Assembly (NCBI GenBank): GCA_040397175.1
Contig: JBBAWM010000009.1
Span: 1-16,116 of the forward strand
Origin: Candidatus Limnocylindrus sp.
Lineage (GTDB): Bacteria; Chloroflexota; Limnocylindria; Limnocylindrales; Limnocylindraceae
Length of the DNA: 16,116 nt
Reading direction: 5' to 3'
Part shown: positions 2,543 to 13,263 of the stretch, piece after piece
Numbering within the stretch: position 1 is the stretch's first letter
Layout of the letters: every line of letters begins with the position of its first letter
Translations under genes and position numbers: made by a program
The notes under the pieces: model-generated
Databases searched by the model: none
What the model saw: only the letters and a program-made list of their open reading frames with translations
Told to the model about the DNA's origin: nothing

Positions 2543-3526
2543 ATGAACTACGACACAATCTACGCAGGACTCGGCCCACTGTTTGCCGAGATGACCAGCC
2601 AGACCCTCACCGAGACACCGGGTGTTGAGATGGACCGGTACCTATCGCACGCCGGCCGAGTGGTCATCCGCTCGGGCAGCTCGACCCCTCGAAAGAAGGC
2701 CGAACCCGTGGCTACCACCGTCACCGCCCTGGAAGGTGAGACCTTCTACCTCCGCCCGAACGGCGACAAGTACTTTGCCCGCAAGTGGGGAGAGCACAGC
2801 GACGTCGAGGTCATTCGCAAGTCGCGAGCCAAGAGCCACTACGTCCTCCTCTACGGAGCGCCCGGCTGCGGCAAGACCGCGATGGTCGAGGCCGCGTTCG
2901 GCGACGAGCTCGAGACCATTCTCGGCACCGGCGACACCGAGGTCAGCGACCTCGTGGGTGGCTACGTGCAGACCGCGACCGGCGGCTTCGAGTGGGTCGA
3001 CGGCCCGCTGCTTCGAGCCGCTGAGCACGGCAAGCCCCTGCTCATCGACGAGATCGGCATCATCGACCCGAAGGTACTGACGGTCGTGTACGGCCTCATG
3101 GACGGTCGTCGCGAGTACACCGTCACCGCCAACCCGGAGCGTGGCACCGTCAAGGCCAAGGACGGGTTCTACGTCCTCGGCGCGACCAACCCAAACGCGC
3201 CGGGAGTCAACCTCTCGGAGGCCCTGCTCTCCCGCTTCGGCATCCACGCCGAGATGACCACCGACTGGTCGCTCGCCAAGAAGATGGGCGTTCCGGCTAC
3301 CGCAGTCTCAGCCGCCCAGAACCTGGCAAAGAAGCGCCAGAGCGACGAGGTCAGCTGGGCACCTCAAATGCGCGAGCTCCTGAAGTTCAAGGAGCTGGCC
3401 GAGGACTTCGGCACCACCTGGGCCGTGAGCAACCTGCTCGCAGCGGCACCGGAGATGGACCGACCAATCGTGGCCGACACCTTCACTCGAGCATTCGCTG
3501 AAGAGTCGCGCCCGGCGAAAATCTAG
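2543..3526 (+). CDS. MoxR-family AAA+ ATPase (CbbQ/NirQ/NorQ/CobS-like, AAA_5)
   Basis: Walker A GAPGCGKT, DLVGGY, WVDGPLLRA, Walker B LLIDEI, sensor ATNP, arginine finger ALLSRF. Strong RBS. Confidence 0.92.
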   Translation: MNYDTIYAGLGPLFAEMTSQTLTETPGVEMDRYLSHAGRVVIRSGSSTPRKKAEPVATTVTALEGETFYLRPNGDKYFARKWGEHSDVEVIRKSRAKSHYVLLYGAPGCGKTAMVEAAFGDELETILGTGDTEVSDLVGGYVQTATGGFEWVDGPLLRAAEHGKPLLIDEIGIIDPKVLTVVYGLMDGRREYTVTANPERGTVKAKDGFYVLGATNPNAPGVNLSEALLSRFGIHAEMTTDWSLAKKMGVPATAVSAAQNLAKKRQSDEVSWAPQMRELLKFKELAEDFGTTWAVSNLLAAAPEMDRPIVADTFTRAFAEESRPAKI

Positions 3527-3554
3527 GTTGCTTCGTCGTTATCCTAGACCTGGA

Positions 3555-3684: not shown

Positions 3685-5472
3685 ATGACACACTTCGGAA
3701 CCTCCGGACACACCAAGGTCGACGCCCCCGAGTGGCTCAAGGTCGGCTCGGCCATCAGCTCACTCGTAAACGACTGGTCGCTACGCAGCGACCTCATCGT
3801 TCGCGTCGGACCAAACGAGAGCGCGCCGGCCCCGGCACTCTTCAACCCGGCCCTGGCCGAGGTAGAGGTCAACACCGTTCACGCCTTCGGTCCGTCCATC
3901 GAGCCCGAGCTCGTCGGAGACCTGACCGACCGCGACACCCAGTTCGACTGGCCAAAGGCCACCGGCGCGATCTTCCACGAGGCCCTGCACGCCCGCTTCA
4001 CTCAGTTCAGTCTGCAGGCCATCGCAGACGCCCTGCCTGCGGGACCGCTGGCTGCCCTGCACCTGCTAGAGGAGTCGCGCATCGAGGGACTCGGCGTTCG
4101 CGCCATGCCGTCCAACCGTGGCTTCTTGCGAGCCTGCGCCCTGGAGATCGTCCTCGGCGACCTGACCGCAGAGAAGCTGGCCGAGCAGGGACACACCCGC
4201 GCCGTCGCCCACGTCGCCGGACTCACCCTCGCCCGCGTCGACGCCGGAGTGCTTGAGCGCTCAGACGTCGAGTCGGTTGCCGAGTACGTCGAGACCTTCT
4301 TGGGCGAGGAGCTACTGGAGAAGCTGCGCGACATCTGGACCGAGTTCCAGGCGCACGCCAAGCACTCGTCTCACCACGAACTAATGCCACTCGCCATCGA
4401 GTGGGACCGACTCGTCACCGAGGAGTCGGAGAAGCGCGGCGAACCGCAGCCGGGCTCAGGTCCGGGACAGGACGTCATCGACGCGATCAGGGAGATGCTC
4501 GAGAAGCTGGCTGACGACGCCGGAGCCGCCGCCATCGGTGCCGGAGACGAGCTGGGCGACCAGCAGCAGTCCGAGGAGTGGAGCCGCGAGGTCAACGCCC
4601 GAGGCAAGGACTCACGCCAGCGCCAGCAGCACAAGGCCGAGGCCGCCAGGATCTTCGACAAGGGCACCGGCCCGGGCGAGAGCAAGAGTCGCTCAAAGTT
4701 GATCGAGCGTCGCCAGCCGTCCGGCGAGGAGCGAGCCGCTGCCGTCCAGGTGGCGAGACTGCTCGAGAAGGCCAAGTACCGCGACCGCTCGATGACCGAG
4801 GTCAACAGCGTGACCCCTCCAGGTCGCCTGAGAACCGGCGCGATGGTCCAGGCTGCCGCACTCAAGACCAAGGGCGTTCGCGCCCAGGTCGAGCCGTGGC
4901 GAGCCACCAAGCGCAAGCACACCGAGGACCCGGAGCTGAAGGTCGGCGTCATGGTCGACATCTCCGGCTCGATGGGCGGAGCGATGACTCCGATGGCCGT
5001 GACGGCCTGGGTCATGTCCGAGGCGGTCCACCGCATCCAGGGCAAGGCCTCGATGGTCTACTACGGCAACGACGTCTTCGCGACCCTGAAGCCAGGCCAG
5101 CACCTGCGCGAGGTCAACGTGTACTCGGCCCAGGACGGCACCGAGCAGTTCGACAAGGCGTTCAAGGCACTCGACGGCTCGATGAACCTCCTGCAGGGCT
5201 CTGGAGCCCGTCTGCTGGTCGTCGTGTCAGACGGCGAGTACGTGCAGGAGGAGAGACAGGCGGCGAAGCAGTGGATGCTCGCGTGCGAGCGCGCCGGAGT
5301 GGCGATCCTCTGGATCAAGTTCGACAGTCGAAACGGCAACCCTGAGCGCTTCTTGAACGGCACGTCCGGCGAGGTCGTCGTGTCAGACGGCGTCGCGTCG
5401 AAGGTCGCCAAGACCATCGGCGAGGCTGCCGCCCGGGCCCTGACCAAGGTCGGAGCCAAACAGGCGCGCTAA
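3685..5472 (+). CDS. CobT/NorD-like VWA-domain protein with N-terminal HEXXH motif (MoxR partner)
   Basis: FHEALH...LEESRIE in the N-terminal domain, low-complexity linker, MIDAS DISGSM, GTE and VVSDG in the C-terminal VWA. Adjacent to the MoxR ATPase. Confidence 0.88.
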   Translation: MTHFGTSGHTKVDAPEWLKVGSAISSLVNDWSLRSDLIVRVGPNESAPAPALFNPALAEVEVNTVHAFGPSIEPELVGDLTDRDTQFDWPKATGAIFHEALHARFTQFSLQAIADALPAGPLAALHLLEESRIEGLGVRAMPSNRGFLRACALEIVLGDLTAEKLAEQGHTRAVAHVAGLTLARVDAGVLERSDVESVAEYVETFLGEELLEKLRDIWTEFQAHAKHSSHHELMPLAIEWDRLVTEESEKRGEPQPGSGPGQDVIDAIREMLEKLADDAGAAAIGAGDELGDQQQSEEWSREVNARGKDSRQRQQHKAEAARIFDKGTGPGESKSRSKLIERRQPSGEERAAAVQVARLLEKAKYRDRSMTEVNSVTPPGRLRTGAMVQAAALKTKGVRAQVEPWRATKRKHTEDPELKVGVMVDISGSMGGAMTPMAVTAWVMSEAVHRIQGKASMVYYGNDVFATLKPGQHLREVNVYSAQDGTEQFDKAFKALDGSMNLLQGSGARLLVVVSDGEYVQEERQAAKQWMLACERAGVAILWIKFDSRNGNPERFLNGTSGEVVVSDGVASKVAKTIGEAAARALTKVGAKQAR

Positions 5473-5477
5473 AAGCT

Positions 5478-5548
5478 GTTGCCAATCTGTTGCAAAGAAC
5501 TTTGGCAAATTGGCATGATTTGGGCAATTGGCGTGCTATAATTAAAGT
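5478..5548 (+). promoter_or_regulatory. Repeated promoter P4
   Basis: GTTGC at 5478 and 5489. TGcTATAAT (5537-5542). ATG at 5549. Confidence 0.8.
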
Positions 5549-5629
5549 ATGCACCAAGCAGTCGACCTCGGTTGACTGGCCACAGGCGGCCAACCGGCAG
5601 TCTGTCCGAAACGACAAAAGGACACTACC

Positions 5630-5992
5630 ATCAGTACATCAACTGTTAGCACCACCGTTCGCACCACCAGCACCACCGTCAGCACCACCGAGCAGGTCGT
5701 TGACCTGACCGCCACCGACGCGAAGGCAATCTTCGCTGAGTACGAGGCTATCAAGAAGGCGAAGACCGATCTTGACAAGCAGGAGAAGGCCCTGAAGGAG
5801 AAGCTCCTAGAGCTGACCGGATGGACCGCTGACGGCGTACCTGCCGTCGCCATCGTGAACGGCGAGCCCCTGTTCAAGAAGCAGGCCGGCAAGTCGGTCA
5901 TCTGGGACGCCGAGCTGATGAAGCTCGTCTTCCCTGAGGCCCTCGAGAAGTGCCGCAGCGAGAAGCCAAACTTCTCCATCCGCGCCGCCTAA
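5630..5992 (+). CDS. Hypothetical coiled-coil protein with ATC start codon (120 aa, not in ORF track)
   Basis: ACGACAAAAGGACACTACC-ATC then an open frame STSTVSTTVRTT...EYEAIKKAKTDLDKQEKALKEKLLEL...FSIRAA* with strongly gene-like codons. In-frame TGA upstream at 5573-5575. Confidence 0.75.
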   Translation: MSTSTVSTTVRTTSTTVSTTEQVVDLTATDAKAIFAEYEAIKKAKTDLDKQEKALKEKLLELTGWTADGVPAVAIVNGEPLFKKQAGKSVIWDAELMKLVFPEALEKCRSEKPNFSIRAA

Positions 5993-6014
5993 CAACCGGC
6001 AACACCAGAGGCGG

Positions 6015-6045
6015 GAGCCTCGGCCCACCAGGGCCGGGGCTCTTC
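6015..6045 (+). terminator. Hairpin after ATC-start gene
   Basis: gagcctcggccc-acca-gggccggggctc followed by ttc. Confidence 0.5.
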
Positions 6046-6085
6046 GTCCACCAAGACCACTCACCCCAATCAAAGGACAAGACCC

Positions 6086-6367
6086 ATGATCTACGACGAC
6101 CACAAGACCCAGCGGCTCTCCCCGGTGCCCGGCACGAACAAGCGCATCGGCGTGGAGCACCTCATCACCATTGACCGGTTCTGGTTCTCGAACCGCGCCG
6201 GTCTACGCATCGGCGTTCCCCTCGCGACCATCGAGGCCCAGACGTTCGAGAACGACTTCCGCCTGGAGATTCACAACGGAAGCTCGGCCGGCGCGGTGTA
6301 CACCAACGCCAGCTACGACGCCCTGCTCCAGGTCCTGCTGCTCGCCGTCAACCACGGCAAGCGGTAG
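6086..6367 (+). CDS. Hypothetical protein
   Basis: 93 aa, AAAGGAC RBS, gene-like codon usage. Confidence 0.75.
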   Translation: MIYDDHKTQRLSPVPGTNKRIGVEHLITIDRFWFSNRAGLRIGVPLATIEAQTFENDFRLEIHNGSSAGAVYTNASYDALLQVLLLAVNHGKR

Positions 6368-6375
6368 CCCAAGAC

Positions 6376-6460
6376 GTCCGCGGCGTTTGTTTGTCCTTTC
6401 CCCGCGGACATGGCCCGGCCAGCTCGAGACTACTCGTTGGCCGGGCCACCCAACTTCCCC
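6376..6460 (+). ncRNA. Candidate structured 3'-UTR RNA with anti-RBS loop
   Basis: gtccgcgg/ccgcggac stem with loop cgtttgtttgtcctttcc, then a 13-bp stem at 6411-6448 and a cttcccc tail. Confidence 0.45.
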
Positions 6461-6465
6461 AATCG

Positions 6466-6492
6466 CGCGGAGCGGCGCGGTAGGATCAGATC
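6466..6492 (+). promoter_or_regulatory. Putative class II promoter of methyltransferase
   Basis: CGCGGAG-cgg-CGCGG-TAGGAT (6481-6486), same layout as 195-213. Confidence 0.45.
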
Positions 6493-6534
6493 GCAACCGG
6501 CACGCTCGCGGAGCGGCCAGAGAAGGAGAGACGC

Positions 6535-7038
6535 ATGCCAAATTTTGGAGGCGAGAGCTCGGTCAGCGGCACGGTCGTGTGGCTGACGCCGCCCTACATC
6601 ATCGAGGCCCTGGGCCAGTTCGACCTGGACCCGTGCGCGCCCGCTGCCGGGGAGAGACCGTTTGAGACGGCCGCGAGCTACTGGACCGAGGCCGACGACG
6701 GCCTGGTGCAGCCCTGGCACGGACGCGTCTGGATGAACCCGCCCTACGGCCCGGGCATGGTCAAGTGGCTCACGAAGCTCGCGACGCACGGAGACGGCTA
6801 CGCGCTGGTCTTCGCGCGGACGGAGACGCGGGCGTTCTTCGACGGCGTGTGGGACCACGCGGACGCGCTCTTCTTCTTCAAGGGCAGACTCAAGTTTCAC
6901 CGACCAGACGGCACGCCCGGCGCGGCCTGCCAGTCGCCGTCGGTGCTCGCGGCCTACGGCTCGCGGAACGTCGCGGCCCTGGAAGACGCGGTCGCCTCCG
7001 GCAAGCTCGTCGGCAAGCTCGTCTACCTGAAGCAGTAG
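6535..7038 (+). CDS. Phage DNA N6-adenine methyltransferase (Dam-like, PF05869 type)
   Basis: WLTP, FDLDPCA, DGLVQPWHGRVWMNPPY catalytic motif, ARTET, GRLKF. SD AGAAGGAG. Confidence 0.88.
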   Translation: MPNFGGESSVSGTVVWLTPPYIIEALGQFDLDPCAPAAGERPFETAASYWTEADDGLVQPWHGRVWMNPPYGPGMVKWLTKLATHGDGYALVFARTETRAFFDGVWDHADALFFFKGRLKFHRPDGTPGAACQSPSVLAAYGSRNVAALEDAVASGKLVGKLVYLKQ

Positions 7039-7049
7039 TTTTTTGAGAG

Positions 7050-7078
7050 ACCCCGGTCGAGAGACCGGGGTTCTTCTC
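7050..7078 (+). terminator. Intrinsic terminator (GAGA tetraloop)
   Basis: accccggtc-GAGA-gaccggggt then tcttctc. Confidence 0.7.
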
Positions 7079-7180
7079 TACCCCGGAGGCGCACGGAGAA
7101 GTCGGCGCTTGCCGGGCGACTCCGTCGCGACACCCTCGAGGCCGCAGCAAACTACAGGTCTGTGGTATGCCTGTTTTACC

Positions 7181-7251
7181 GTTGCGAAGTTGTTGCGAAG
7201 AGATTTGCCAAAAGTGGGCAATTATAGAGATTCATGCGCTATAATTAGAGT
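7181..7251 (+). promoter_or_regulatory. Repeated promoter P5
   Basis: GTTGCGAAG direct repeat at 7181 and 7192. TATAAT at 7240-7245. ATG at 7252. Confidence 0.85.
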
Positions 7252-7653
7252 ATGACAAACACAACGACAACCCTCGAAATCACCTGGACCGGCAACGAGC
7301 ACCTACCTGCCAAGTACCAGACGTCAGGCAAGCACACAAGCAGCCTGGCCGTAGCAGTCCACCACGACGGCAACGACCTAAGCCTCTGCGAGCGCGTGTT
7401 CGAAGAGACCAACCTCTATCAGGGCGAGCTCTGGGACCGCATCCAGCCGCTACTGCCTGACACTCGCACCCACACGGCCCTGAGCGTCGGAGACCTGGTT
7501 CGCATCGACGACCGCGTGTACAAGTGCGCGAACATCGGCTTCAAGTTGATCGAGGAGGCCGGCCGAACAGTTTACAACGTCTCGAGCGGGCACTTCACCG
7601 GTGCCGGGATCTGCGAGACCTGCGGCCCTCTCTGCGACGACGACGACGAATAG
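7252..7653 (+). CDS. YodL-like domain protein (leaderless)
   Basis: HTALSVGDLVRIDDRVYKCANIGF resembles the YodL S(L/M)SVGDVV...Y....GF motif. The C-terminus has CxxC..C. Confidence 0.7.
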   Translation: MTNTTTTLEITWTGNEHLPAKYQTSGKHTSSLAVAVHHDGNDLSLCERVFEETNLYQGELWDRIQPLLPDTRTHTALSVGDLVRIDDRVYKCANIGFKLIEEAGRTVYNVSSGHFTGAGICETCGPLCDDDDE

Positions 7654-7726: not shown

Positions 7727-7786
7727 ATGAGCAAAACACTCGACCGGCCAGGCGGACCCTGGAGCTAGCAAAGGACACCACCGCTT

Positions 7787-9367: not shown

Positions 9368-9651
9368 TGCGGCTTCGCGTCGCCCTCGGGTCCGTCATCC
9401 GAGAGGTGAGACTGGCGAGAGGCCTGACGCTCCGAGACGTGAGCGTGCGCGGAACGGTCGCGCTCGGCTACGTCAGCGAGCTCGAGCGGGGACAGAAGGA
9501 GGCGAGCTCGGAGATACTCGAGCAGATCGCCCGGGCCCTGGACGTGCCGGTCAGCGACCTGGTCGTCGAGGCCGGTCGCCGGATGGCCGAGTATGACCTC
9601 GGACTCTGGTACGACCTTGACCTGGACGAGCTGCTGCTCGCGCACAAGTAA
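9367..9651 (+). CDS. clgR: ClgR-like XRE-family helix-turn-helix regulator
   Basis: LGSVIREVRLARGLTLRDVS...VALGYVSELERGQKEASSEIL..IARALDV closely follows the actinobacterial ClgR signature (TLREVS...VSLGYLSEVERGQKEASSELL). Confidence 0.8.
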   Translation: MRLRVALGSVIREVRLARGLTLRDVSVRGTVALGYVSELERGQKEASSEILEQIARALDVPVSDLVVEAGRRMAEYDLGLWYDLDLDELLLAHK

Positions 9652-9657
9652 ATAGAC

Positions 9658-9772
9658 TCGCGACGCCCTTCCCCCTTTGGCGCGTCGCGACCGGGCCGGA
9701 GACTTCCCCTTTTGTCCGGCCCCTGAGCCCCCGGTAGTTACTGTCCTTTCGACCGGGGGCTCACCCCTCTCC
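9658..9772 (+). ncRNA. Candidate small RNA or 3'-UTR: three tandem hairpins with anti-SD loops
   Basis: Perfect stems at 9658-9690 (9 bp), 9693-9722 (8 bp) and 9724-9763 (12 bp). Loops ccttccccctttggc, gacttccccttttg and agttactgtcctttcg. Strand inferred from the upstream operon. Confidence 0.55.
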
Positions 9773-9792: not shown

Positions 9793-9863
9793 GTTGCGAT
9801 GCTGTTGCCAAGAACTTTTGCGTTTTGGCATGATTTGGGCAGATCATGCGCTATAATTGAACT
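9793..9863 (+). promoter_or_regulatory. Repeated promoter P8
   Basis: GTTGC at 9793 and 9804. TATAAT at 9852-9857. ATG at 9864. Confidence 0.85.
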
Positions 9864-9934
9864 ATGAGCAAATGAATGAGTTTGCTCAGACGGCCAGGCG
9901 GCTCCCTGGACAATGACAAAAGGACAACACAAAC

Positions 9935-10180
9935 ATGAGCGCAAGCAAGTGGGTTCTACTGAACACCAGCGACGGATCACGTGGCGAAAACGGCAAGCAG
10001 AAGGTATACGAGGTGCTGGTCACCGGCACCACCGTCACCTTCACCTGGGGCATGGCTGAGAAGACCAGCCGCCAGAGCAAGACCCAGACCACCTGGTCAG
10101 AGGGCTCGGCTCGACAGGTCGCCCTCGATCAGGTCTACGCCAAGATGGCCAAGGGATACCGCCTGGCCTACTCGGCCTAG
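9935..10180 (+). CDS. WGR-like domain protein (paralog 1)
   Basis: KVYEVLVTGTTVTFTWGM...AKMAKGY fits the WGR fold pattern (K.Y.I......V...WGR...K..KGY). Confidence 0.75.
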   Translation: MSASKWVLLNTSDGSRGENGKQKVYEVLVTGTTVTFTWGMAEKTSRQSKTQTTWSEGSARQVALDQVYAKMAKGYRLAYSA

Positions 10181-11002: not shown

Positions 11003-11056
11003 GTAGCAAGCGCCCGGTCGACCGGTCGGGCGGACACCACGACAAAAGGACACACC

Positions 11057-11383
11057 ATCAAAACATTCAAAAACATCAGCAGAGAAGCGGCAGAAGTAGA
11101 CGGCGGCACCGGACTCGAGGGATACATCACCTCGACCAGGCGCGAACTCGAAACCGCGTTCGGAGCACCGGACGAGACCGGCACCATCGACAACAAGGTC
11201 ACGACCGAGTGGACCCTGAGGTTCAACGACGGAACCATCGCGACCATCTACGACTGGAAGCGATACGAGTACGACCTCGGAGCTCCGGAGCTCGACGAAG
11301 TCTACCAGTGGCACATCGGCGGACAGAGCAAGCAGGCAGTCTACGCCGTCTCGGCAGCGGTCGCCAGAGCAGCGATCGCGTAG
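11057..11383 (+). CDS. Phage hypothetical protein with ATC start codon (108 aa, not in ORF track)
   Basis: ACGACAAAAGGACACACC-ATC. Frame reads ...GTGLEGYITSTRRELETAFGAP...KVTTEWTLRFNDGTIATIYDWKRY...YQWHIGG..., resembling a widespread phage family (ATIYDWK...WHIGG). No ATG/GTG/TTG anywhere in the frame. Confidence 0.8.
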   Translation: MKTFKNISREAAEVDGGTGLEGYITSTRRELETAFGAPDETGTIDNKVTTEWTLRFNDGTIATIYDWKRYEYDLGAPELDEVYQWHIGGQSKQAVYAVSAAVARAAIA

Positions 11384-11428: not shown

Positions 11429-11520
11429 ATGCCCCGGGACTGCACGGAGCGGCGACCATCACTCGAGGGCTGAGAGTGCCGGGCGCTGCGCCCGGAGCGC
11501 CCTCGCGACGAGTCCAAATC

Positions 11521-11580
11521 GTTGCAAACTAATTTCGCAAACCAGGCTGATCTGGACCGTCAACGCGCTATAATTGAAGT
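11521..11580 (+). promoter_or_regulatory. Repeated promoter P11
   Basis: GTTGC at 11521. TATAAT at 11569-11574. ATG at 11581. Confidence 0.8.
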
Positions 11581-11826
11581 ATGACAACTATCACAAAGAC
11601 ACCCGCAGAAATCGTTCGCGCCGAGTACGGAGCCATCGTCGGAAAGCGCGTCCTAGACGTGCGGCCCCTGACCGCTGCCGAGCTCAGCGACCTCGCCTGG
11701 GACGACAGTTCCGGCACCATCCCGCTCGTCATCTTCTTCGAGGACGGCAAGGCCCTCATCCCGAGCATGGACCCGGAGGGCAACGGACCGGGACACCTGT
11801 TCATCGACGACTGGAAGCGCGCTTGA
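11581..11826 (+). CDS. Hypothetical protein (leaderless)
   Basis: 81 aa with C-terminal PSMDPEGNGPGHLF motif and gene-like codons. Confidence 0.8.
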   Translation: MTTITKTPAEIVRAEYGAIVGKRVLDVRPLTAAELSDLAWDDSSGTIPLVIFFEDGKALIPSMDPEGNGPGHLFIDDWKRA

Positions 11827-12570: not shown

Positions 12571-12834
12571 CTACTCGACCGGGATGACGATCGGGAAGCC
12601 CTCCCAGGCGACGTCGTGTTCCTTGTCGTCGTCGACCGGGTATCCCTCGAAGTCATCTCCGATGAGGTCCGGGTCTGCGTCCACCTCGATGGCGACCTTG
12701 TCCGGGTCCTTCAGTTTCGACTCCCAGCCGCCAATCAACTTGAGCGTCTTCGGCTCGCCGTCGATGGTGACCTCCCAGTAGACGTCGTACTTGTGCAGTG
12801 CTTTGGCCTTGGCCTGTCCTTTTATAGTTGTCAT
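12571..12834 (-). CDS. Hypothetical acidic protein (leaderless; only minus-strand gene)
   Basis: 87 aa. ATG lies 6 nt after the minus-strand TATAAT. Confidence 0.8.
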   Translation of the reverse strand: MTTIKGQAKAKALHKYDVYWEVTIDGEPKTLKLIGGWESKLKDPDKVAIEVDADPDLIGDDFEGYPVDDDKEHDVAWEGFPIVIPVE

Positions 12835-12960: not shown

Positions 12961-13017
12961 ATAGCAACAAAAGCCTGGCCGACCGGTCAGGTGCCGGAAC
13001 GACAAAAGGACAGACAC

Positions 13018-13263
13018 ATGAACGAGCAGTACTTCGCACTTCTAAAGACCTCAGACGGCAACCGCGGCGAGGCAGGCAAGCAGAAGATCTACGAGATCCG
13101 AGTCCAGGGCCGCAAGGTCGTCTACTCGTGGGGAATGGCTGAAAAGACCGCCCGCCAGTCGAAGACCGTCTTCTTCGTCAACGACAACGTGGCGCAGTTC
13201 GAGGCCCTGAACCAACTTCGCAGCAAGGTCGTGGGCGGCTACCGAGTAGCCGTCCGCGCCTAG
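13018..13263 (+). CDS. WGR-like domain protein (paralog 2)
   Basis: 81 aa after ACGACAAAAGGAC. 41/81 identical to 9935-10180 by manual ungapped alignment. Confidence 0.8.
   Translation: MNEQYFALLKTSDGNRGEAGKQKIYEIRVQGRKVVYSWGMAEKTARQSKTVFFVNDNVAQFEALNQLRSKVVGGYRVAVRA

Follow-up and report, generated by a model that had tools for sequence, protein, structure and literature searches.

The loop of hairpin A, a GC-stemmed hairpin that begins 9 nt past the stop codon of a small gene at 6086–6367 (gene 6086), is complementary to the RBS of that gene. Both the hairpin and the complementarity are confirmed. In the phage family to which we assign this DNA, comparisons among lineages strongly support the folding of such loops back onto the leaders of their own genes, and for hairpin A itself the balance tips slightly towards a comparable role, in which it would act as an icaR-like 3′-to-5′ brake on finished messages. 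The DNA analyzed here (the window) is an entire contig of 16,116 nucleotides, C9, from a 30-contig, 1.38-Mb assembly. The features that bear on the argument are the following.

679–688, + strand: RBS of gene 689, with 10 Watson-Crick pairs to the loop of hairpin A
2543–3526, + strand: MoxR-type AAA ATPase gene, used as a query for relatives
3522–3548, + strand: weak hairpin over the AAA-ATPase stop codon, with a loop that complements 9 nt (2524–2532) of the AAA leader
3685–5472, + strand: vWA gene, used as a query for relatives
5478–5551, + strand: early promoter/operator module, with repeat families D1 and D2 and TATAAT at 5537–5542
5630–5992, + strand: gene 5630, a 120-codon ORF with a phage-type RBS (5617–5624), an apparent ATC start and a weak phrog_434 match
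6010–6048, + strand: long GC hairpin with a tetraloop between genes 5630 and 6086, like the phage's other terminator-like stems
6072–6081, + strand: RBS of gene 6086, candidate cis target of hairpin A by predicted pairing
6086–6367, + strand: gene 6086, a 93-aa ORF without PHROG or Pfam match
6376–6409, + strand: hairpin A, with an 8-bp GC stem (6376–6383/6402–6409) and an 18-nt pyrimidine loop (6384–6401)
6390–6399, + strand: anti-RBS seed in the loop of hairpin A, resembling the 16S 3′ tail of the bin
6411–6448, + strand: hairpin B, a GC-rich, terminator/stabilizer-like stem without a U tract, directly 3′ of hairpin A
9658–9763, + strand: hairpin triplet with C/U-rich loops, 3′ of the HTH gene (loop 3 at 9736–9751)
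9919–9934, + strand: RBS/spacer of the WGR-domain gene 9935, with 9 pairs, a bulge and then 5 to 6 pairs to hairpin A
13005–13016, + strand: RBS/spacer of the WGR-domain gene 13018, with 12 contiguous pairs to hairpin A, G-U included

Hairpin A, its candidate partner RBS and its likely message

The initial annotation described an 8-bp stem around CGTTTGTTTGTCCTTTCC, and this stem is present, with that sequence filling the loop. An extra pair, G6385–C6400, is possible and would leave a 14-nt loop (6386–6399). The predicted fold has an energy of −15.4 kcal/mol (z, −3.88), which 1 of 200 shuffled sequences equaled. The core TGTCCTTTC, proposed to be common to hairpin A and loop 3, indeed recurs at 9742–9750. 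The complementarity claimed between this core and the RBSs of genes 6086 and 689 exists as well, and the 689 RBS matches over 10 nt, but the register was off by a small shift: the complement of AAAGGACAA is TTGTCCTTT (6391–6399) rather than TGTCCTTTC, and the match of loop 3 to TTGTCCTTT is limited to 8 nt. Pairing of the seed with 6072–6081 comprises 10 contiguous pairs, 9 Watson-Crick and one G-U, with a predicted energy of −11.4 kcal/mol; for the 16S tail of the bin on the same site, the prediction is −5.8 kcal/mol. Opening would cost a predicted 3.3 kcal/mol at the RBS of gene 6086 and 0.7 kcal/mol at the loop of hairpin A. The labels 3′-UTR and cassette, which the initial annotation gave to this setting, are putative.

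The shared 8-mer occurs 11 times on the two strands of the window, compared with 0.29 expected. On the transcribed strand, nine of these copies have the form AAAGGACA (eight on the plus strand and one in the minus-strand gene at 12815), and only two have the form TGTCCTTT (6392 and 9742), both in hairpin loops shortly past a stop codon. Loops with an anti-SD motif number 4 in the 16 kb of C9 versus 17 in the remaining 1.36 Mb of the bin. An Rfam search at 6376–6460 returned no match up to E 5, and exact hairpin A patterns were absent from metagenome and viral contigs. The 15-nt loop pattern had 146 matches in viral contigs, 100 of which were opposite-strand RBSs and none of which lay in a comparable hairpin.

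The module at 5478–5551 is likely the start of the 5630–6086 message, and gene 5630 is likely the first cistron of a message that ends at hairpins A and B. Transcription would thus start at about 5549 and run through genes 5630 and 6086 into the two hairpins as a single message. Homologs of gene 6086 form three clusters (97, 85, and 75% identity); its alignment had no match in metagenome contigs, and the search of viral contigs gave a single weak 18-residue match, which we discarded. The search of viral contigs for gene 5630 found none, and one 40% homolog was seen elsewhere, in locus L002. Neither hairpin looks like a standard intrinsic terminator, hairpin A having a 14- to 18-nt loop and no U tract and hairpin B lacking a U tract as well. 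Actinobacterial terminators can be U-poor. The tip TCGAGA is common to the terminator-like GC stems at 7057, 8174, and 10518 (and 6424), whose tails are U-poor.

We compared the region 6050–6540 with contigs X12, X17, and X19 from related strains. None of the 22 counted differences of X12, nor of the 7 in the X17 piece (over 6364–6533), falls in 6368–6409 in this small set of related strains. The loop is also unchanged in X19, because it contains no A and the one further change in that contig is an A>G. From the 16 variable sites listed over three runs in 6410–6533, the approximate P value is 0.009 for 34 invariant nucleotides and 0.08 for the loop alone. In X17, a divergent allele replaces the 3′ third of gene 6086 and the hairpin is still unchanged; the loose end of X19, which is probably DNA, reads like this divergent allele. 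Nothing in the X20 metatranscriptome aligned to this region, a result that is neutral as to expression. Hairpin B, which lies within the annotated span 6376–6460 and went unmentioned there, shows a compensatory change in X12 and X19 (6413 G>A with 6446 C>T).

Other features of the window were seen alongside. At 5617–5632 and 11045–11059, a perfect phage RBS leads into two ORFs (120 and 108 codons) that carry ATC in place of the expected ATG. An ATG start is found in relatives of the 11057 gene, and the ATC codons at 5630 and 11057 are possibly deliberate noncanonical starts or shared mutations. Module repeats at 558–631, 5478–5551, 7181–7254, 9793–9866, 11510–11583, and other places carry tandem GTTGC boxes upstream of TATAAT, of which the window has about 13 sites; the boxes may be operators, e.g., for HTH gene 9367. 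At 5549–5575, 7727–7768, and 9856–9864, an ATG at the likely transcription start opens a mini-ORF of 3 to 13 codons before an RBS-led gene, and at 7252, 10732, 11581, and 12834 (minus strand), the same start-site ATG opens a leaderless gene. A second class of intergenic motifs, at 161, 460, 7091, and 11442 (GCACGGAG) and at 206 and 6479 (GCGGTAGG), could represent promoters of a different type, one of them ahead of the methylase gene 6535.

A loop class in a family of large actinophages

The AAA ATPase of the window shares 67% identity with its counterpart in Actinomycetia phage DSL-LC01 (129 kb) and 43 to 53% with those of Microbacterium phages Pumpernickel, Cece, and A3Wally, and relatives are encoded on 58 IMG/VR contigs. 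Copies of AAAGGACA/TGTCCTTT number 11 in C9 and 6 in the other 29 contigs of the bin (1.36 Mb). Within the bin, the promoter motif GCTATAATT occurs in C9 only, and the promoter/operator module recurs throughout the contig. C9 is unlike the remaining contigs, and we take the window to be early-region DNA from a large, uncultured, DSL-LC01-like freshwater actinophage that was binned into a bacterial MAG. The methylase was the sole match of the window to phages by blastn. The 16S tail of the bin ends in CACCTCCTTTCT, and the bin may not be the host of the phage. Bin contigs C6 to C8, C11, and C14 have a GC content of ∼58%, versus 63% in the main contigs, and the bin may hold further foreign DNA besides C9.

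To count loops across this family, we used the first set of loci and scored the 3′ segments of its called genes for anti-SD motifs in loops closed by at least 8 Watson-Crick pairs. Such loops were found in 37 of 1319 distinct segments, whereas 20 dinucleotide shuffles gave a mean of 1.05 and a maximum of 3; in the same segments, the opposite strand had 6 and SD-sense loops numbered 9. Of 815 distinct loops in a strand-symmetric search, 74 were anti-SD and 29 were SD loops, with some hairpins entered under two loop boundaries. The commonest 5-mers in these 815 loops (L002 to L060, several loci) were TCCCC (74) and CTCTC (47), and the loop CTCTCCCC recurs 3′ of small genes. The stems of the anti-SD loops are unrelated in sequence. 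G-T pairs outnumber A-C pairs by 53 to 10 in these stems, compared with 536 to 355 in other hairpins, which points towards RNA of the sense strand. We also considered a minus-strand gene that would use the complement of the loop as its RBS, and rejected it since no ATG or GTG stands at RBS spacing and the G-U bias favors the sense strand. Together, the enrichment across the family and the invariance among strains support the selection that the initial annotation suspected, and we regard the class as real.

Within the family, loops of 10 to 27 nt sit on a dedicated GC stem adjoining the stop codon. The stems lie within ∼15 nt of the stop and overlap it in some AAA lineages. Hairpins without anti-RBS loops have similar stop distances, so that this distance, which we had considered as a sign of melting by ribosomes, is nondiagnostic. 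Some loops pair upstream of the SD, as for the AAA genes of L007, L017, L019, L021, and L016, or over the AUG, and some lack any anti-SD; the class is therefore anti-leader and not only anti-SD. A 9-nt complement of the own leader in the 3′ segment was found for only 18 genes under 300 aa (1111 called genes), gene 6086 included.

Own leaders and other partners

In relatives of the vWA gene, leaders as varied as GAAAGGACAAG, TGACGGAAGGAT, GGGAATAGGAA, GGAGAAGA, GATAGTAAGG, and AGGACAAGTAAAC, among others, have their complement in a loop ∼1.8 kb downstream, and the loop tracks the leader of its own gene as that leader changes between lineages, across many motif types. The first set contained 59 vWA loci, 17 of which were without a hairpin by our filter; the rest provided 28 distinct loops, 27 of them scored. 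The own leader was within the top 10% of phage-type leaders of the locus for 17 of 27 loops and within the top 20% for 20. For AAA loops, these counts were 10 and 15 of 31, obtained with a picker that kept the strongest hairpin alone and in many cases passed over the one that mattered. When the AAA and vWA leaders of a locus were swapped, the own pairing was better in 26 of 30 comparisons. Fifteen hand-picked pairs on the vWA tree (no row reused, two pairs on one short branch) favored cognate over swapped pairing by 9 to 0 with 6 ties for vWA and by 10 to 1 with 4 ties for AAA.

A replication set of 80 loci, 79 of them with a vWA gene, yielded 21 new loops after 42 seen or duplicate loci were skipped and 14 without a hairpin and 2 unscored were set aside. 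The own leader ranked in the top 10% for 14 of these and in the top 20% for 18, and own pairing was better in 15 of 16 AAA/vWA swaps; the lineages are related, and these counts, like those of the first set, are not independent. Among 127 unselected stop-adjacent hairpins, 30 had their own leader in the top 10% (22/60 with pyrimidine-rich loops versus 8/67 with others). Many short loops after other genes, including the CCCCTTT type, showed no own-gene preference, and the L025/L054 loop fits other genes better, its own leader ranking 12th of 18. The vWA 3′ ends of L047, L064, and the L044-L053 clade fail or barely pass the filter, yet contain an 8-nt complement of the vWA leader in a looser structure.

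Cultured phages gave mixed matches. In Pumpernickel, the hairpin that follows AAA gene 227 has a tip complementary over 11 nt to the gene 226 RBS, the best of 22 leaders. The Cece loop matches the gene before the AAA gene over 8 nt versus 9 nt for the gene after it, and the A3Wally loop ties at 7 nt for both. No comparable loop was found 3′ of the AAA gene in Gordonia phages Sixama and GodonK.

We ranked the leaders of the window as partners, using motif-based, imperfect gene calls and a start of the HTH gene (9367) set by hand. By energy, the own RBS of hairpin A was 9th of 32 with the 14-nt loop and 21st with the 18-nt loop (20th of 31 in another ranking), and the 5630 RBS was 19th to 20th. 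The 10 contiguous pairs of the gene 6086 RBS tie for second among the partners listed. The best partners are WGR genes 13018 (first) and 9935 (second), on other transcription units. These paralogs (9935–10180 and 13018–13263; weak Pfam PF05406) share their region with the vWA gene and the MoxR-type AAA gene; WGR, MoxR, and vWA are associated at the E. coli yeh locus. In relatives, WGR leaders were top-20% partners of vWA 3′ loops in 8 of 13 cases and, in the new set, in 3 of 4, compared with 2/20 and 2/12 for the gene before AAA and 0/7 and 0/6 for the 11057 family. This test was picked after the fact, and its four new cases represent a single motif lineage. The WGR fit may reflect leader variants shared by WGR and vWA genes.

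Other loops of the window were ranked in the same way. Loop 3 pairs best with the RBS and GTG start of 8978, a gene of the same run that lies upstream of it (1st of 32, 2nd with a trimmed loop). The AAA hairpin at 3522–3548 ranks its own leader 1st of 32 and is absent from the minimum-energy fold of the wider region. The vWA gene of the window lacks a strong 3′ hairpin, so hairpin A could also form the 3′ end of messages that read through from this gene, and the loop of hairpin A pairs over 8 to 9 nt with the vWA RBS. Overall, the proposed fold-back onto the own RBS is strongly supported in the phage family by the covariation of vWA and AAA loops with their leaders, but at hairpin A the upstream gene is not privileged and the WGR genes pair better.

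Possible roles and known systems

We slightly favor the view that hairpin A works as a fold-back brake. The stem would keep the seed single-stranded, and the loop would pair back onto the RBSs of its own message at high local concentration, with a 283-nt ORF between. By the predicted energies, loop-RBS pairing (−11.4 kcal/mol) should outcompete 16S pairing (−5.8 kcal/mol). Once the 3′ end is made, initiation on finished transcripts and their stability would drop, and each message would be translated mainly during its transcription. Because a single RBS motif recurs across the early genes, further early messages may be damped in trans by this loop as well. A 10-bp helix through a 14- to 18-nt loop is near the steric limit for loop-linear pairing. 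We infer repression from icaR (PMC3868564) and from the effects of distal anti-RBS sequences in Bacillus subtilis (PMC12697547). Against such a brake stand the middling rank of the own RBS and of the 5630 RBS at hairpin A, the weaker signal of AAA loops (10/31 in the top 10%), the vWA loci without a hairpin (17 of 59, 14 in the second set, and the window's own), the better fit of the downstream gene than of the operon head in Cece with the tie in A3Wally, and the fact that the anti-RBS 8-mers of PMC12697547 were shielded between pairing segments or two hairpins. A more elaborate scheme, which we consider quite unlikely, is a gene-end module of large actinophages, including the cultured Microbacterium phages: a stop-adjacent stem with a loop re-tuned to each leader would close the mRNA into a ring that terminating ribosomes open, a translation-sensing switch that would keep busy early messages on, lock idle ones off, and cross-silence a subset of AAA, vWA, and WGR genes.

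The ranking of the WGR genes bears on a mainly trans-acting hairpin, whose stable 3′ end or processed fragment would silence early messages with the same RBS motif, the WGR genes preferentially. The two best partners of hairpin A lie on separate transcription units, WGR leaders exceed both control families as partners of vWA loops, the hairpin stayed fixed in X17 and X19 while the 3′ third of gene 6086 was swapped, and the triplet at 9658–9763 has an sRNA-like build. The WGR test is post hoc, however, and open to explanation by a shared leader variant; the preference for own leaders and the swap tests weigh more, a promoter that could drive a separate RNA was not found, and the target search covered 16 kb of a genome of probably ∼130 kb. 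To our knowledge, Actinobacteria lack Hfq, which also weighs against action in trans, and we judge this reading unlikely, if credible.

The pairing could instead be positive or conditional, tethering the 3′ end to the leader in a closed loop that shields the 5′ end from nucleases or recycles ribosomes, with a ribosome at the stop codon melting the stem and freeing the leader, so that busy messages are on and idle ones off. The AAA loops that pair upstream of the SD, the stems close to or overlapping the stop, and the B. subtilis hbs message, where pairing of the 5′ and 3′ ends influences RNase Y cleavage (PMC5737220), speak for it. Hairpins without anti-RBS loops are equally near stops, hairpin A, like the majority of vWA loops, covers the SD proper, and distal anti-RBS sequences were repressive in PMC12697547, which makes a tether rather improbable. 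We hold it very unlikely that the loop mimics the 16S tail in order to shut off translation of host mRNAs, or serves as bait for S1 or another protein, and resembles phage RBS complements incidentally: the seed does look like the 16S tail of the bin, and CCCCTTT-type loops follow other genes without own-gene preference, but the loops follow phage-specific letters beyond the SD core, some lack an anti-SD, and outside C9 the bin (1.36 Mb) contains just 6 copies of the full 8-mer. An ordinary terminator or stabilizer with a neutral loop, or DNA inverted repeats for gene inversion, is likewise far from probable. Hairpins A and B are where a terminator is expected, and an RBS motif common in the window makes some match cheap, but the enrichment over shuffles and the opposite strand, the covariation, and the invariance of the loop argue against both, and the bulges and G-U pairs of the long-range helices against inversion. 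An inverted vWA gene was found in 0 of 61 and 0 of 79 loci, and no strand-change joint was among those listed for the window, so inversion was rejected.

The fold-back brake has its closest counterpart in icaR of Staphylococcus aureus, where a 3′-UTR pyrimidine motif, the 7-nt UCCCCUG, pairs with the SD of its own mRNA, blocks 30S loading, and invites RNase III; it concerns one chromosomal gene, with cis versus trans action left open in the parts of PMC3868564 drawn on here. Hairpin A likewise is complementary to the SD of what would be the same mRNA (6390–6399/6072–6081). It differs from icaR in that the seed lies in the loop of a dedicated GC stem and that such loops follow several genes of a phage family, re-tuned to the leader of each lineage; specificity for the own message is seen at the family level, whereas hairpin A ranks its own RBS 9th to 21st of 32. 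In B. subtilis, distal aSD-like 8- to 12-mers that lie hundreds of nucleotides away base-pair with the RBS on its 3′ side, which blocks translation, accelerates decay, and lowers mRNA levels, with protein down 44% at >500 nt (PMC12697547). Those sequences were engineered and are depleted from native genes, whereas here they are enriched and conserved, and their 8-mers were shielded between pairing segments, whereas the loops here are larger; the word phage is absent from the consulted portion of PMC12697547. The 5′/3′-UTR pairing of hbs (14 bp in one message) modulates RNase Y cleavage in the leader and, unlike that of hairpin A, does not cover the SD (PMC5737220). In OppZ/CarZ of Vibrio cholerae, an operon 3′ end pairs with its own transcript and inhibits translation, but these are RNase E-processed, Hfq-associated trans-acting RNAs (PMC7398697). 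A long-distance 5′-3′ interaction sequesters the SD in the full-length aapA1 message of Helicobacter pylori (PMC5416894).

In aapA1 and hok, messages are silent also while nascent, 3′ trimming activates them, and an antisense antitoxin exists, whereas here the nascent leader is predicted to be open and no antisense gene was seen. The full-length hok message is subject to fold-back inhibition. The nascent hiding of the SD typical of type I toxin messages is not predicted at the RBS of gene 6086, where opening costs 3.3 kcal/mol (an equilibrium, not kinetic, prediction in local context). A scan for sigma-70-like promoters on both strands of 5400–7300 found none, and it also missed the phage's own promoter. 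Like sX13 and other sRNAs with several C/U-rich-loop hairpins (PMC3771888), the 9658–9763 triplet combines several such loops; its match to sX13 (RF02232) at 9645–9767 reached 28.9 bits versus a gathering score of 50 (E, 0.04), which falls short of membership. By analogy, hairpin A would work like the pairing in icaR, hbs, and aapA1, possibly that of OppZ/CarZ, and belongs to no Rfam family.

We found no description of such loops in phages by title and abstract start, though supplements of structured-RNA surveys may list them, and the consulted portion of the DSL-LC01 paper (PMC10611076) contains none of the words hairpin, terminator, and Shine. Natural 3′-to-5′ pairing within bacterial mRNAs has so far been a matter of a few single-gene cases (icaR, hbs, and type I toxin messages). 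A 2025 preprint shows that distal anti-RBS sequences are repressive and as a rule purged from genes. The phage family appears to do the opposite: its anti-RBS sequences are built into loops and kept matched over kilobases, which provides comparative evidence for long-range mRNA pairing at 0.3 to 1.9 kb. The cultured phage Pumpernickel makes the loop pairing directly testable. Such loops suggest that early phage genes could be limited or timed without a protein, and they offer a portable part for the control of expression in actinobacteria.
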